Shown piece by piece: positions 3,650-47,669 of a stretch of 64,000 bases of DNA; position 1 is the first letter of the stretch; each line of letters opens with the position of its first letter. Origin of the DNA: a virus (lineage: Duplodnaviria; Caudoviricetes). The stretch spans positions 1-64,000 of the IMG/VR virus record IMGVR_UViG_3300033463_000080; one strand, 5' to 3'. A program made the translations under genes and the position numbers. The notes under the pieces were generated by a model. It made no database searches. It worked only from the letters and a program-made list of their open reading frames with translations, and was not told the DNA's origin.

Positions 3650-4451
3650 GAAGACCTATAACCAGCGGAAGGGAATCCGCAGAAGCGACCTGTGGAAACT
3701 TAAGAGGAGTCCGGCACACTACAAGTATTCGACCGAGCATCCGGCAGAGCCGAGCGCGGCGATGACATTCGGTAGTGCGGTTCACTGCGCGGCGCTGACC
3801 CCAAAGATGTTCACGAAAGAGTATGTCGTTGCGGACTTCGACGCGCGGACGAAGGAAGGCAAGGCGCTGAAGCAGCAGTACCTGGACGAAGGAAAGGTCA
3901 TGCTGACCAGGGACCAGGGAGAGCAGATTGACGGCATGGTAGCCGCGATCAGGGCGAACCCGTTTGCACGGCGGCTGCTGACCGGGAAGCACGAGACGGC
4001 GCACTTCTGGTTCGATCCGGAAACCGGAGAGAAGTGCAAGTGCAAGACGGACTGCGAAACGGACATCAACGGCGTCCACTACATCGTGGACCTGAAGACC
4101 TGCCAGAACGCGGAGACGGATGCGTTCATGAAGGATGCGATATCCTATGGTTATTTCATGCAGGCGGCGATGTACAGCCAGGGCGTGAAGTGCCACACGG
4201 GGAAGAACAGTGTGTTCGTTTTTGTGGCGGTCGAGAAGGACCCGCCGTATGCGGTGAACGTGATCCAGTGCGGAGAAGACGAGATCCGGCTGGGGATGAA
4301 CGGGGACAAGTACGGAAGAGTGCCGGGGTTCCGGACGCTGATACAGCTTTTCCATAAGTGTAGAACAGAAAAAAAGTGGCCCGGTTACGAAGGATTTGAC
4401 AACACGATTGCGGAGATCAATCTGCCGAAATGGCTGAAAGACGAAGAGTAA
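3642..4451 (+). CDS. PD-(D/E)XK exonuclease, RecE/ExoVIII-like (DUF3799)
   Basis: RSDLWKLKRSPAHY, FGSAVH, CKCKTD...IVDLKT, YFMQAAMY motifs. Confidence 0.85.
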   Translation: MTEKTYNQRKGIRRSDLWKLKRSPAHYKYSTEHPAEPSAAMTFGSAVHCAALTPKMFTKEYVVADFDARTKEGKALKQQYLDEGKVMLTRDQGEQIDGMVAAIRANPFARRLLTGKHETAHFWFDPETGEKCKCKTDCETDINGVHYIVDLKTCQNAETDAFMKDAISYGYFMQAAMYSQGVKCHTGKNSVFVFVAVEKDPPYAVNVIQCGEDEIRLGMNGDKYGRVPGFRTLIQLFHKCRTEKKWPGYEGFDNTIAEINLPKWLKDEE

Positions 4452-14816: not shown

Positions 14817-15149
14817 ATGAAGAAGATTGCGATTATTGTCCTGATTGTTGTAATGATTGGAATGCTGTTTGTGCTTTCCAGCTGTTCTGATCCGCACAAG
14901 ACCGGCAACAGAATCACCGGCGGGAAAGACGTGCAGACATTTACCTACTGCTATGTGGTGCTTGGCGGCAAGGAGATTGTAAGGGGAAGTATCACAAATT
15001 GGCGCGATTACGAGAACAGTGATACAGTTCAGGTCCTTGTTAATGGGAAATATTACCTGACACATTATACAAATGTCGTTATGATTGCCGATCCGGAACA
15101 AGGCGCCCTTTCATATGGAGATGTCAGTTGGCAAGGAGTTGAAGAATAA
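14817..15149 (+). CDS. predicted lipoprotein
   Basis: Signal peptide MKKIAIIVLIVV... with lipobox LSSC. Confidence 0.7.
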   Translation: MKKIAIIVLIVVMIGMLFVLSSCSDPHKTGNRITGGKDVQTFTYCYVVLGGKEIVRGSITNWRDYENSDTVQVLVNGKYYLTHYTNVVMIADPEQGALSYGDVSWQGVEE

Positions 15150-15150
15150 T

Positions 15151-15765
15151 ATGCCAGAAGTGAAACCTGTTCCAGGATACGAAGGAAAATATTCTGTTGA
15201 TGATACCGGAGTTGTTTATACTGCACGACGTCGCGGAACATCTGGTGGAATTCTTCCACAGCGATTGAACTCATCAGGCTATTACCGTGTTGATCTTCAG
15301 GACGGAAATAAAAAACGTTCCGTATTTGTTCATCGGATTGTTGCAAAAGCATTTATAGTGAGGAAACCTGGACGGGATTATATCAACCATAAAGATGGAA
15401 ATAAACTCAACAATCATGTTGACAATCTTGAATGGTGTACCAGGTCAGAAAACATAGTCCATGCATATAAAAATGGATTGATGCATGAATTTCATCCAAG
15501 TGGAGAAAAACACACAAACAGTAAGCTGACAGATAAAGAAGCAATTGAAATTTATCGTCTGCACTGTGCTGGGGAAAGTGGCATTCAGATTGGCAAAAGA
15601 TTTAATGTTGGTAAAAATGTTGTGTATTTTATTATTCATGGAAAAAGAAAATTAAGCAATGGAATGACAGTTAAGCAATACATTGAAACAAACAAACCCG
15701 ATCCGGAACAAGGTGCGCTGAGTTATTCGGATGTAAGTGTTGGCTGGGACAATATTAATGAGTGA
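15151..15765 (+). CDS. NUMOD4-HNH homing endonuclease
   Basis: KPVPGYEGKYSV...G, VHRIVAKAF, INHKDGNKLNNHVDNLEWCT. Confidence 0.9.
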   Translation: MPEVKPVPGYEGKYSVDDTGVVYTARRRGTSGGILPQRLNSSGYYRVDLQDGNKKRSVFVHRIVAKAFIVRKPGRDYINHKDGNKLNNHVDNLEWCTRSENIVHAYKNGLMHEFHPSGEKHTNSKLTDKEAIEIYRLHCAGESGIQIGKRFNVGKNVVYFIIHGKRKLSNGMTVKQYIETNKPDPEQGALSYSDVSVGWDNINE

Positions 15766-40179: not shown

Positions 40180-40324
40180 TGTAAACGCAATTTGCGATTA
40201 CATAAATGCGAACCTTATCAATTGAAGATGGAAACTTGGCGGATAGGCCGACGGGCCGAAGAGTGGAGACGCCTTACCACCTGCCGCCAAGTAACCATAA
40301 AGGCGAACTACGGAGGCGATAGTT

Positions 40325-40879
40325 ATGGAAGAAATTTGGAAAGACATCGAAGGGTATGAGGGATTTTATCAGGTGAGTAATTTGGGGAATGTAAAAAGCT
40401 TGAATTATGCGCATCGTGGATATCAAAAAAACCTTGTCCCAAAGTGTAATAACAGTGGCAGGCTTTGGGTTGAATTAATTAAATACGGTGCAAGAAAGCC
40501 AATGCTCATTCACAGACTTGTTGCGATGGCGTTTATTCCAAACCCATGCAACCTTCCACAAATTAATCACAAAGATGAAAACCCCAAAAACAATGCGGTT
40601 GATAATCTGGAATGGTGTACGAATAAATATAATGTTCAGTACACGGTCGATAGGCATCCTGAATGGTTTAGACGGGGAGGCAATCCCGGAAGAGAAAGAA
40701 ATAGCAAGTATCACAGAATGCCGATTAATCAGTTTGATAAAAATGGGAATTTGATAAAACAATGGGCAAATGCAAGAACGATATTTGTTCAAACTGGGAT
40801 GAGTGATTGGAGCATTGCTGAGTGTTGCAGAGGAAAAAGACACACGGCATATGGTTTCAAATGGCAATATGCCATATGA
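40325..40879 (+). CDS. NUMOD4-HNH-NUMOD1 homing endonuclease
   Basis: EIWKDIEGYEGFYQVSNLG, IHRLVAMAF, INHKDENPKNNAVDNLEW, GFKWQY. Confidence 0.92.
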   Translation: MEEIWKDIEGYEGFYQVSNLGNVKSLNYAHRGYQKNLVPKCNNSGRLWVELIKYGARKPMLIHRLVAMAFIPNPCNLPQINHKDENPKNNAVDNLEWCTNKYNVQYTVDRHPEWFRRGGNPGRERNSKYHRMPINQFDKNGNLIKQWANARTIFVQTGMSDWSIAECCRGKRHTAYGFKWQYAI

Positions 40880-42140: not shown

Positions 42141-42791
42141 ATGAAAATACTCGTTGCCGTACCGACGTTTGAAACGATTTATCCGGACACCTACAAATCG
42201 CTGTGGGATCTGGACAAGTGCGGGCATGAGGTGCTGTTTGACAGCGTGCGCGGATACGATGTCGCGACGGCGCGGAACAGGATTGCCCAGCGCGCGCTTG
42301 AACTGGAAACGGACTGGCTGCTTTCGGTGGACAACGACGTGGTGCTTCCGAAGGATGCATTGAAACTGCTCATGGAGGACGCGCGCGACGTGAACCTCGG
42401 ATACTACGCGCACAGGGACCCGAAGAACAACTACACAGGCCGGATGTGCGTGTGCAGGCTGAAGGACGCGGAAGGGAACGAGTATTACCACTATCCCAAG
42501 GAATCGCAGTACACGGCGAACGAACTGCACGCACTGGCGGCTGCCGGGGAGAAGAAGATTGAGATCCACGGCGGCGGCATGGGATGCGCGCTGATCCGGA
42601 CGGAAGTCTTCCGGAAGACCTCGTACCCATGGTACGACTGGGTGAATTACGGGGACAGAAACCGGGGAATGCTGAGTGAAGACCTGTACTTCTGCTCAGT
42701 ATGCAGGGCAAGCGGGATTGCGATTCATGCGGACGTCAGGGTAGGATGCGGACATATGTTCCGGTATATCCAGTACCCTGAAGATCTGTAG
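42141..42791 (+). CDS. GT-A fold (GT2-like) glycosyltransferase inside the head module
   Basis: ILVAVP, ARNRI, LSVDND, GGGMGCALI, SEDLYFC, CGH. Confidence 0.8.
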   Translation: MKILVAVPTFETIYPDTYKSLWDLDKCGHEVLFDSVRGYDVATARNRIAQRALELETDWLLSVDNDVVLPKDALKLLMEDARDVNLGYYAHRDPKNNYTGRMCVCRLKDAEGNEYYHYPKESQYTANELHALAAAGEKKIEIHGGGMGCALIRTEVFRKTSYPWYDWVNYGDRNRGMLSEDLYFCSVCRASGIAIHADVRVGCGHMFRYIQYPEDL

Positions 42792-44946: not shown

Positions 44947-45503
44947 GTTATACCCTGAAGAACATTGACATGACTCTGGACGAGAGTTCAATCGAGAAGG
45001 CGATCAGGGAAGTCAATCGTTTTGCGGAACAGCTTCAGGATGCACTGGACGGTCTGTGTGAACGGCTTCTGGACGAAGGCGTTGAAGTCGTGAAGATGCA
45101 GATCCTGGCCATGCCGGCCGTGGACACCGGCGCGCTGATGGCGAGTATTGGCCACGGCGCATTCGACCGGACAAGCGGTACCGGAGTGATCTATGCCGGA
45201 GCGTACTATGCGATGTTTGTCGAGTTCGGAACGGGAATCGTAGGCAAGGCCAATCCGCATCCGATGGCCGGCAAGGTGGACTCCGCTGTGCTTGGCATGA
45301 ACGGATCCGTGTACGACCGTTACGATACAAACAAGCACGGGAACGATGGCTGGTTTTACAGGGCGGTGGGCGAGAACGGATACAGCTGGACGAAAGGTAT
45401 GCCGGCCAGACCGTTTATGTATAACGCCGGGATCACGCTGGAAGGATACGCCAGGGAACACGGGGCGGAAATCATTGCGGAATACATCAGGAGCGGGGGT
45501 TGA
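44943..45503 (+). CDS. HK97 gp10-like tail completion protein
   Basis: VDTGAL, YAMFVEFGTG, KGMPARPFMY. Confidence 0.8.
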   Translation: MSYTLKNIDMTLDESSIEKAIREVNRFAEQLQDALDGLCERLLDEGVEVVKMQILAMPAVDTGALMASIGHGAFDRTSGTGVIYAGAYYAMFVEFGTGIVGKANPHPMAGKVDSAVLGMNGSVYDRYDTNKHGNDGWFYRAVGENGYSWTKGMPARPFMYNAGITLEGYAREHGAEIIAEYIRSGG

Positions 45504-45509
45504 CGAAGC

Positions 45510-45908
45510 ATGATCGACTATGAAGTGAAAATCTTCAACAGGGTTCACGCAAAAGTCGCTCCGCTGTGTGCCAAAGGCAAGTTTGTCAGCACGATCATTA
45601 CGGAGGAGCCGACCGGATTTCCGGCGGCCAGCCTAATCGAGATCGATAATCGAACCGTGAGCGCGCGTCAGGGCAGTACTCCGAAGGAAAATTTCGCTCT
45701 GATTACATACCAGCTGGACGTGTATGCCACCACGAAGTCCAAGTGCCGCGAAGTGTTCGCCACCGCAGACGAATCCATGATTGCCATGAACTTCAACCGC
45801 GTAAGCGGACAGTACATGGACAATGCTGGAAACACGAAAGTGTTCCGGTACGTGGCGCGTTACAATGCGGAAATTGATCCGGACGGAAACATCTACCGCA
45901 GAAAGTAA
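45510..45908 (+). CDS. tail terminator-like protein
   Basis: Position and size; YQLDVY. Confidence 0.6.
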   Translation: MIDYEVKIFNRVHAKVAPLCAKGKFVSTIITEEPTGFPAASLIEIDNRTVSARQGSTPKENFALITYQLDVYATTKSKCREVFATADESMIAMNFNRVSGQYMDNAGNTKVFRYVARYNAEIDPDGNIYRRK

Positions 45909-46014
45909 CGGCCGCGAAACTGAATACATGAGAGACGCATGATTTGCGGGTATGGATTCTATCCACGCTTTCATGCGTTTTTGCTATCCATCACAACGAA
46001 AGGAGACAAAGACT

Positions 46015-46732
46015 ATGCCCAGTGTAAAAGGTATTTCGACCTATCAGACTTACCTGATGTACAGGACGACCACGAACGGCGACTATGCCAAGCTGATCGA
46101 CATCACGTCCTTCCCGGATCTGATTCCTCCGAAGGAGAGAATCGACATCACCTCGCTGAGTGACTACATGCGTAGACTGTAATGCGCCTTTGCCCGGTAA
46201 CGGGCATAGCAAACCTGTTTAATTGCCGGAAACTCTCCGCATTGATACCGGGTGCGGAGACAATCGGCAGCCAAGGCTGGAAACGGCAAGGTTCAACGAC
46301 TATCCCGAAAGGGAGTACGCCGCAAGCGATTGGCGGCGGAAATGGCAGGGATCCGGAAACGGATCGTGAGATAGTCTGATCTCCATGGCGACATGGAGCA
46401 GTCCGAAAGGACGGTTGCGGAGCAGCGACCCGCAGCGAACACAAGTGGTTTACATCAGCGGTATCGGCGATACCTCCGAGTTCCAGTTCGGTGCGAACTA
46501 CACGCCCGAGAACTATGCGAAGGTGAAGGCCCTGGAAAACAACGTCTACGGTTACGCCGTATGGTTCGGCGCGTCCGGTTCCGCAGGTTCGGAAGATCCG
46601 GACGGCCACTACGGAAAGTTCAGCTGGACCGGCGACATCTCTGCGGGTATTTCCGGCGGTGGCGTGAACGAAGCGGTTGGTATGACCATTAACTGCACGC
46701 CCAGCACGGTTGTTGTGTACAGTTCCACCTGA
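46015..46732 (+). CDS. major tail (tube) protein, spliced: exon 1 46015-46173, exon 2 46448-46732, 147 aa
   Basis: Joining gives ERIDITSLSDYMR|VYISGIGDTSEFQFGANY, a continuous tail-tube motif. Confidence 0.85.
46174..46447 (+). ncRNA. group I intron (IA-like), 274 nt, no ORF
   Basis: 5' exon ends in U, intron ends in G; P AATTGCCGGAAACTC, Q AATCGGCAGC, R TTCAACGACTA, S GAGATAGTCT; P2, P7.1, P8, P9 closed by GNRA loops. Confidence 0.9.
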
Positions 46733-46854
46733 TGAGCAATGCCATGGGGGAGGGTATCCTCCCCCGTGGCAACGGTCATAAACACACATGAGGAGGCATT
46801 GATATGCCGAGAAAGACTGTGCCGATTGATTCGGCGAGAAAGGAAGGCAAGCCA

Positions 46855-47202
46855 ATGGCTGCGGAAAAAAAGGATTTCACCAAGGTTATTATCGGAGACA
46901 AGGAAGGGAACAAATACACGCTGGAGTTCAATGCCCGCGTGGTGAAGAACATGGAGCGGAGAGGGTTCAAGATTGACACCGACTATCCGCACTCGATGAT
47001 CGACGATCTGTTCCTGGGCGCATTCCAGATGCACCACAAAAACATTATGCCGGAGCGCGTGCGCGAGATCTGGAAACAGCAGACCCACAAGGATGATCTG
47101 CTTGGCATTCTGACCAAGCTGTACATGAAACCGCTGGAGGATCTGATGGCAGAACCTGAAGGCGACGAGGAAAACGAAACCCCTACGTGGGAGACCGTCT
47201 GA
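46855..47202 (+). CDS. tail assembly chaperone
   Basis: Between tail tube and TMP; YTLEFNAR...LFLGAF...HH. Confidence 0.75.
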   Translation: MAAEKKDFTKVIIGDKEGNKYTLEFNARVVKNMERRGFKIDTDYPHSMIDDLFLGAFQMHHKNIMPERVREIWKQQTHKDDLLGILTKLYMKPLEDLMAEPEGDEENETPTWETV

Positions 47203-47669
47203 CAGACGATCAGAAGCAGACGGAGTCCCGTTCGTATGGAGATATCTTTGACGAACTGTTTCCACACTACCTGCTGATGGGCATGACCCCGGAGCAGTAC
47301 TGGGACGGCGAGAGCGGACTCAAGAAGGCATACCGGAAAGCATACGAAATGAGCGTGGAAATGGAGCAGCGGAATGCGGACCGGAACAACTGGTACATGG
47401 GGCAGTACATGATGGCGGTGCTGCAGAGCGTGCCGTTGCTTGTGGGCGGACTGAACGTGAAGCGTGGAACGCAGCTGCCTGAGTATCCGAAAGAACCGTT
47501 CCTGGAGAAGGCAATTGCCGAGAAGAAACAGGAAGTCAAAAAGAAACGCGAAGAAGACCAGATGAAACTTGCCATGGCGATGTTCCAGGCGAGTATCGCC
47601 AAGTTCAACAAGAACGTTGAAAAGCGACTCGCAACGGAAAAGAGCAGGCAAACTAATACTGGGCAGTAA
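47187..47669 (+). CDS. tail assembly chaperone extension (GT-like, -1 frame)
   Basis: Overlaps the chaperone in the -1 frame; GMTPEQYWDG. Confidence 0.65.
   Translation: MGDRLTDDQKQTESRSYGDIFDELFPHYLLMGMTPEQYWDGESGLKKAYRKAYEMSVEMEQRNADRNNWYMGQYMMAVLQSVPLLVGGLNVKRGTQLPEYPKEPFLEKAIAEKKQEVKKKREEDQMKLAMAMFQASIAKFNKNVEKRLATEKSRQTNTGQ

Follow-up and report, generated by a model that had tools for sequence, protein, structure and literature searches.

In the textbook picture, phage introns reside in genes of DNA metabolism. The introns in gene orf142 of phage Twort were reportedly described by Landthaler and Shub in 1999. According to two papers (PMC10136302, PMC11878797), orf142 is now recognised as the gene of a tail tube protein and contains three introns, two of which are similar to each other, belong to subgroup IA2 and are separated by an exon of 23 nt that can be skipped. 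A tail tube gene carrying a group I intron is also found in a prophage of the Bacillus cereus group (PMC2504315). In the cluster J mycobacteriophages (Pope et al. 2013), a minor tail gene of BAKA contains a 265-bp group I intron without an ORF and a related intron resides in the capsid gene of LittleE (PMC3706429). In this cluster, RT-PCR showed splicing for introns of minor tail and capsid genes, both those lacking an ORF and those bearing an endonuclease gene (PMC3706429). Collaborative homing, with an ORF-less intron and free-standing homing endonuclease genes in one phage, has been reviewed (PMC3984707), and the mobE/I-TevIII case of T4 is dealt with in PMC2790892.

The DNA analysed here, in the following called the window, comprises the first 64 kb (64,000 nt) of a 79,252-bp complete virus record with direct terminal repeats. 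The phage is of a complete 79-kb siphovirus type, uncultured and from gut or rumen. We assign a probability of roughly 0.9 to the reading that the window carries a functional self-splicing intron of IA type without endonuclease gene, which would interrupt a late gene encoding a tail tube protein resembling lambda gpV and would be mobile now or have been so recently.

As in the Bacillus cereus-group prophage, a group I intron interrupts the tail tube gene, but host lineage and protein are different. The likeness to Twort lies in ORF-less group I ribozymes in a highly expressed late tube gene, and in the short exon between two similar introns (23 nt in Twort, 15 nt in one relative of the window, contig L023). 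However, the host of Twort, a myovirus, is a Bacillota pathogen, and no sequence similarity was detectable between the tube proteins of Twort and the window. Exon skipping is demonstrated for Twort. The present population goes beyond Twort in comprising tube genes with none, either or both of the introns. The cluster J phages are similar in that some members only carry the intron and in that their genomes are rich in free-standing HNH genes (PMC3706429). They differ in their high-GC actinobacterial host and in the gene concerned, which encodes a minor tail protein and not the tube, and their splicing was seen directly, whereas that of the window intron is deduced from its sequence. Tail-tube introns were already known; the interest of the present case lies in the population data with four insertion registers, a retargeted guide and an allele interrupted twice around a 15-nt exon.

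The interrupted tail tube gene

Exon 1 (46015-46173; like exon 2, the intron with its helices and the two HNH genes of the window, it lies on the plus strand) starts with an ATG at 46015 behind an AAGGAG ribosome-binding site, comprises 53 codons and ends in ...SDYMR with U46173 as its last base. It shares 75-98% identity with exon 1 of close relatives. Exon 2 (46448-46732) consists of 94 codons and a stop codon and on its own already matches the major tail protein family phrog_158. For full-length queries we used uninterrupted homologues; the window's own exons were never joined for any tool. A full-length intronless homologue matched phrog_158 with an E-value of 2.4e-12 and Pfam Phage_TTP_11 with 27.3 bits, slightly below the cut-off of 28.4. 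Searched against Pfam, each exon alone hit no family, and a PDB sequence search with the full-length homologue gave nothing meaningful. An AlphaFold model (25 homologues, pLDDT 77) resembled tail tube protein V of lambda and other tube proteins with a Foldseek probability of 1.0 and a TM score of about 0.55-0.60. On one flank of the gene are an HK97 gp10-like gene and a tail terminator; a DUF5055 chaperone and a tape measure of 1,821 residues lie on the other. PHROG, Pfam, predicted fold and gene order identify the product of the interrupted gene as a tail tube protein of lambda gpV type, and the initial annotation, which had named a major tail protein gene as the host of the intron, agrees with the family match, the tube fold and the position in the tail module. 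The insertion sites correspond to residues 42-58, a loop of low confidence in the monomer model. A scan for consensus promoters and terminators around the tube gene gave results no better than shuffled sequences. In the head region of the window, an ORF at 42141-42791, situated between head genes and the major capsid gene, has a weak, sub-threshold match to Pfam Anp1 (glycosyltransferase-like).

With exon 2 alone as query we retrieved 46 loci from IMG/VR, 68 from metagenomes and 4 from MAGs, together with 4 GenBank phage records, the sequences of two of which were taken in. After removal of duplicates, 77 unique homologous tail tube alleles were left. A megablast search of GenBank phages with 45500-47300 gave no match, and by these searches close relatives are confined to metagenomes.

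In 65 of the 77 alleles the gene is continuous exactly at the predicted junction, with zero gap; three have small indels there and nine contain an insert of 274-538 nt. Because the intronless alleles read through at the junction (e.g. ...SDYMRTYINGIGD...), the intron boundaries are fixed by comparison, beyond what a model alone provides. Deletion of 46174-46447 (274 nt) yields ...SDYMR|VYISGIGD..., and the reading frame is restored only with the boundary at 46447, the terminal G at the 3' splice site, which is an invariant column in our alignment of intron copies (A1). The tail tube frame runs into a TAA at 46180-46182, three codons into the intron in the loop of P1, and continues from 46448. 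Both the stop at 46182 with resumption of the frame downstream and the restored junction peptide had been described before, and we find them unchanged. A stop lies 3-6 codons past the splice site in every sister copy, too. Such a stop codon soon after the start of the intron is what phage introns generally show (PMC2504315).

A search with covariance models had been proposed as a check of the intron. It returned a match to Rfam RF00028 at 46164-46398 with 85 bits (E 3.4e-20) over the full model, positions 1-253, the gathering score being 50, and this was the sole group I match in the whole 79-kb genome. Sister copies scored 84-104 bits against the same model. The match stops at 46398 because the Rfam model ends after P9. 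Taken together with the intronless alleles and the covariation described below, 46174-46447 is by its sequence features a group I intron without an ORF, of subgroup IA-like type, and it presumably splices.

Structure of the intron RNA and predicted splicing

Alignment A1 contains eleven intron copies, nine of them distinct, onto which sixteen helices were mapped from the window copy. Across the nine distinct copies 94.5% of the cells are standard pairs, compared to 36-45% after a displacement of the 3' partners by 1-3 columns. Changes on both sides were found for 34 of the 80 pairs, a number reached by none of 500 shuffles. An independent minimum free energy fold of the window copy recovered P2 to P9.2 (z = -5.5). 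Compensatory changes are present in P2, P4, P6a, P7.2, P8, P9, P9.1 and P9.2. In P3 a single pair varies, and on one side only, and no change occurs in P7 and P7.1, so that these helices are uninformative on covariation; P5a is poorly aligned in A1. The core helices from P3 to P8, with the pseudoknot of P3 and P7 and the P4-P6 domain, are 100% paired in all nine distinct copies.

P1 (46170-46187) is formed by the exon bases GCGU together with A, the base that opens the intron (46170-46174), and the intron sequence UGCGC (46183-46187). The 5' splice site lies in the wobble pair U46173.G46184, and this U.G is kept in 9/9 distinct copies. The third pair of P1 covaries with the exon, being G-C at the insertion site of the window (site A) and A-U at a second site described below (site B). 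P2 (46191-46206) is a hairpin with a GUAA loop in which 6/6 pairs are compensatory. The 5' strand of P3, CCUGUU (46214-46219), pairs with GGCAGG at 46344-46349. Between P3 and P7 lies the P4-P5-P5a-P6-P6a domain (46224-46292), in which all four pairs of P6a (46276-46287) are compensatory. P7 consists of GACUA (46298-46302) and UAGUC (46372-46376), invariant in all copies. It is followed by P7.1 (46303-46314) and P7.2 (46318-46338), the latter with 2 compensatory pairs. P8 (46350-46365), with a GAAA loop, shows 4 such pairs. In the 3' part (46381-46435), P9 (46381-46398), P9.1 (46401-46412) and P9.2 (46415-46435) show 5, 1 and 4, respectively. The initial annotation had listed P1, P2, P3, P7, P7.1, P7.2, P8, P9 and the terminal G from the letters of a single copy; all are present, each helix being 100% paired in the nine copies. 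The P10 pairing UGUAA/UUACA, also proposed there, exists in the window copy but is weak, with 58% paired across relatives.

The extra hairpins P7.1 and P7.2 are typical of subgroup IA. By these hairpins and by P9.1/P9.2, and not by subgroup-specific models, the intron is placed in subgroup IA, with an IA2-like appearance.

From this structure the following course of expression can be proposed. A ribosome translating exon 1 would halt three codons inside the intron, at the TAA, and would leave the ribozyme core free to fold. A guanosine would then attack after U46173, held in P1 by the U.G pair with the internal guide GCGC. Joining of the exons past G46447 would finally give a tube protein of 147 residues. 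An earlier suggestion that splicing gates an abundant virion protein is trivially true, as exon 2 needs splicing, but nothing suggests regulation.

It is very improbable that the insert is a decayed remnant which no longer splices, leaving a tube gene that is broken or made as two pieces. The shortness of P1, with just 4 base pairs in its exon part, would fit such a decay. However, compensatory changes maintain all core helices among copies differing by 14-31%, and the complete phage genome has a single tube gene, whose exon 2 has neither a start codon nor a ribosome-binding site of its own at 46448. Furthermore, constraint on the codon preceding the intron preserves P1: CGT is the last exon codon in 5/5 same-phase A alleles vs 6/51 intronless alleles (p = 1.2e-4, protein-guided set).

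Insertion sites and movement among related phages

Nine of the 77 unique alleles (about 12%) bear an intron. An intron at site A, after CGT, was seen in the window and in L004, L012, L017 and L221, and likewise in L065 and L088, which were found via the intron motif; the last two also have CGT before the intron, and their introns are 89% identical to that of the window. A sister intron, located 17 nt downstream at site B within ...GGCAT|CGGC..., is present in L032, L038, L205 and L207. Its identity is 69-80% in A1, and local BLAST alignments give up to about 83%. The pairing in P1 follows the site: GCGU pairs with GCGC at site A, and GGCAU with GUGCC at site B, a single change in the guide matching a single change in the exon.

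Using a junction pattern, a doubly interrupted allele was found in the L023 contig alone (IMGVR_UViG_3300033463_002477), whose tube gene carries both introns (Rfam 84 and 95 bits). At 2447-2999 of L023, introns of 272 and 266 nt flank the 15-nt exon; skipping of this exon would delete five codons and keep the frame. The arginine codon of L023 is CGC and its intron A lies 2 nt later (CGC GT|G TAC), still after a GCGU word. Alternative boundaries for this intron, with an A as exon end and the second G as intron end, were rejected because they violate the U.G rule and put the intron out of alignment with the remaining copies. A divergent tube clade (L081, L100, L102, L103, L147, L159) shows an apparent split at a third site, visible as a break in the exon profile alignment. 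The exact junction, read in L102 only (3665-3944, minus strand) as ...TTCGT|intron|GCCTGG, is situated 8 nt downstream of site A and belongs to an intron of the same lineage with the guide GCGA. This amounts to four insertion registers within 17 nt.

At least three gains or losses of intron A are required on a tree built from the spliced genes. The clearest sign of transfer is given by L012 and L017, found in different metagenomes: their introns are 98% identical, whereas their flanking exons and neighbouring genes share 63-80%. The tract of high identity ends at most about 15 nt from either intron end, so that little or no co-conversion appears to have taken place around this intron. These comparisons of sequences show that the intron is polymorphic and has moved horizontally among related phages.

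The 17-nt stretch of the tube gene may be an insertion hot spot, entered by one lineage in at least four registers with the guide matching the local exon word and with almost no co-conversion, a view we regard as doubtful. If true, it would provide natural evidence for guide-directed transposition of a phage group I intron, i.e. by reverse splicing; the other option is that several introns act as alternative shields against one nuclease targeting the stretch.

For spread at the RNA level, the intron would reverse-splice into the tube mRNA at guide words (GCGU, GCAU, UCGU) and then be reverse-transcribed and recombined into phage DNA, from which new registers and the sister introns would arise. 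The shifted intron of L023, which follows the same GCGU|G word but lies 2 nt farther along the reading frame than its window counterpart, and the change of the guide from GCGC to GUGC, which parallels the change in the exon from site A to site B, would be expected from such a route, as would the near absence of co-conversion around a 98%-identical intron. But a search of the genome for a reverse transcriptase gene found none, a guide of 4-5 nt cannot account for all registers within 17 nt of one gene, and the register shift comes from a single contig of 7.4 kb. We know of no demonstration of spread by reverse splicing for phage introns in nature, and we consider this route distinctly unlikely.

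Our leading guess for the spread is DNA-level homing in trans by I-HmuI-like HNH nucleases as in the sister introns, with reverse splicing as the main alternative. The initial annotation had suggested that mobility could be borrowed from one of four free-standing HNH genes in the sense of collaborative homing. Whole-genome searches (Pfam HNH, HNH_2, HNH_3, HNH_4, HNH_5 and GIY-YIG, and phmmer for paralogues) reduced this number to two, both of NUMOD4+HNH_3 type; matches to HNH, HNH_2, HNH_4, HNH_5 and GIY-YIG were absent from the genome. The gene at 40325-40879, a candidate for a trans-acting homing enzyme, encodes a full-length homologue of I-HmuI (PDB 1U3E, E 7e-17) and lies 5.3 kb upstream of the intron. 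The second, at 15085-15765, is 31 kb away. Directly upstream of the 40325 gene, 40236-40303 matches the Rfam family int-alpA (45 bits, gathering score 35.8). The setting at 40236-40303 differs from the integrase/alpA context that gave this family its name.

The intron itself was rightly described as ORF-less, no ORF above 65 codons being found in its 274 nt. Homologues of both HNH proteins (30-45% identity) are located inside sister introns, for example those of L163, L090, L056, L099 and L124, on the intron strand between the 5' strand of P6 and J6/7; this corresponds to the GAAA loop of P6a in the window copy. HNH ORFs of about 180 codons were seen in L6 at 2446-3200 of L163 (major head), 13048-13700 of L090 (NrdD) and 1416-2150 of L056 (large terminase). 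Because these homologues sit inside sister introns, the lineage has both endonuclease-bearing and ORF-less members. The resemblance to the DNA polymerase intron of Bacillus phage SPO1 and its I-HmuI consists in the homologue at 40325-40879 and in the sister introns with an internal gene, but in the window the nuclease gene lies outside the intron and far away.

Under collaborative homing, a free-standing I-HmuI-like HNH enzyme would cut or nick intronless tube alleles close to the insertion site during co-infection, and repair would copy the intron and thereby destroy the site. The introns at the four registers (A, A', B and C) could then be alternative disruptions of one nuclease target, and four registers in 17 nt point to a DNA target region more than to a 4-nt RNA word. 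The full-length I-HmuI homologue at 40325 and the HNH genes in L6 of introns of the same lineage likewise argue for this route, and the window resembles collaborative homing systems in combining an ORF-less intron with free-standing homing endonuclease genes. In the published cases, to our knowledge, the nuclease gene adjoins the intron-bearing gene and the cut site is the insertion site. By contrast, the two HNH genes of the window are not adjacent, and an endonuclease or other extra gene was found within 2.5-3 kb of the tube gene in none of the 77 alleles, the gene order being identical.

The distribution of HNH_3 genes among relatives points in both directions. Only 1/19 related records, the genome G004 with an intron at site B, has one. 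Among complete genomes HNH_3 is present in 2/2 intron-bearing ones (the window phage and G004) vs 0/6 intronless ones, a difference that is nominally significant and based on few genomes. Yet no HNH_3 gene was detected in three contigs of 36-44 kb with an intron at site A. Because they are absent from 18/19 related records, including six complete genomes, the two HNH_3 genes of the window phage are recent insertions. Co-conversion of at most 15 nt also speaks against homing of this kind, and the 2-nt register shift of L023 is impossible by simple homologous copying. Published precedents for collaborative homing exist (PMC3984707, PMC2790892). On balance we consider this route less likely than not: the I-HmuI-like family carried by the sister introns makes homing in trans possible and plausible in kind, but the number and position of the HNH genes leave it unsupported in detail.

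Host genes of the intron lineage

A census with a 26-nt core covering J6/7, P7 and P7.1 found the lineage in at least 116 viral contigs of IMG/VR. Host genes were assigned by Rfam, PHROG and profile searches; for head, terminase, NrdD and primase genes, assignment means proximity (within 1.5 kb of the motif) and not proven interruption, and the tail tube count refers to split matches to the tube-protein profile. Among the matches listed, at least 34 copies are near the major head protein, some genes having two or three introns, 10 are in the tail tube gene and 7 near the large terminase, with 1 copy each for NrdD and primase/helicase; the remaining copies among these matches are unassigned or fall to genes of unknown family. 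Two or three tandem introns of the same lineage were observed in phrog_1328 major head protein genes of uncultured phages at 1542-2906 of L067, 655-2019 of L118, 883-1608 of L057 and 685-1411 of L116. By blastn, cultured phages match the core within genes for terminase, DNA polymerase and ribonucleotide reductase.

The statement of the initial annotation that virion genes are rarer hosts of phage introns is not borne out for this lineage: with at least 116 contigs sampled, at least 34 copies adjoin major head genes and 10 are in tube genes, and introns in tube genes have been published before. At least 44 copies in or next to capsid or tube genes, among at least 116, suggest that the textbook picture of introns in DNA-metabolism genes is biased by cultured phages.

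For annotation, our data mean that the tube gene of this phage and of its relatives is to be counted as a single gene and not as two fragments. Without a model of introns, gene callers will get wrong both the tube gene and the many major head genes that are split in related contigs. With empty, single and double alleles, a sister intron with a retargeted guide and endonuclease-bearing cousins, this natural population makes the spread of ORF-less phage introns directly testable.
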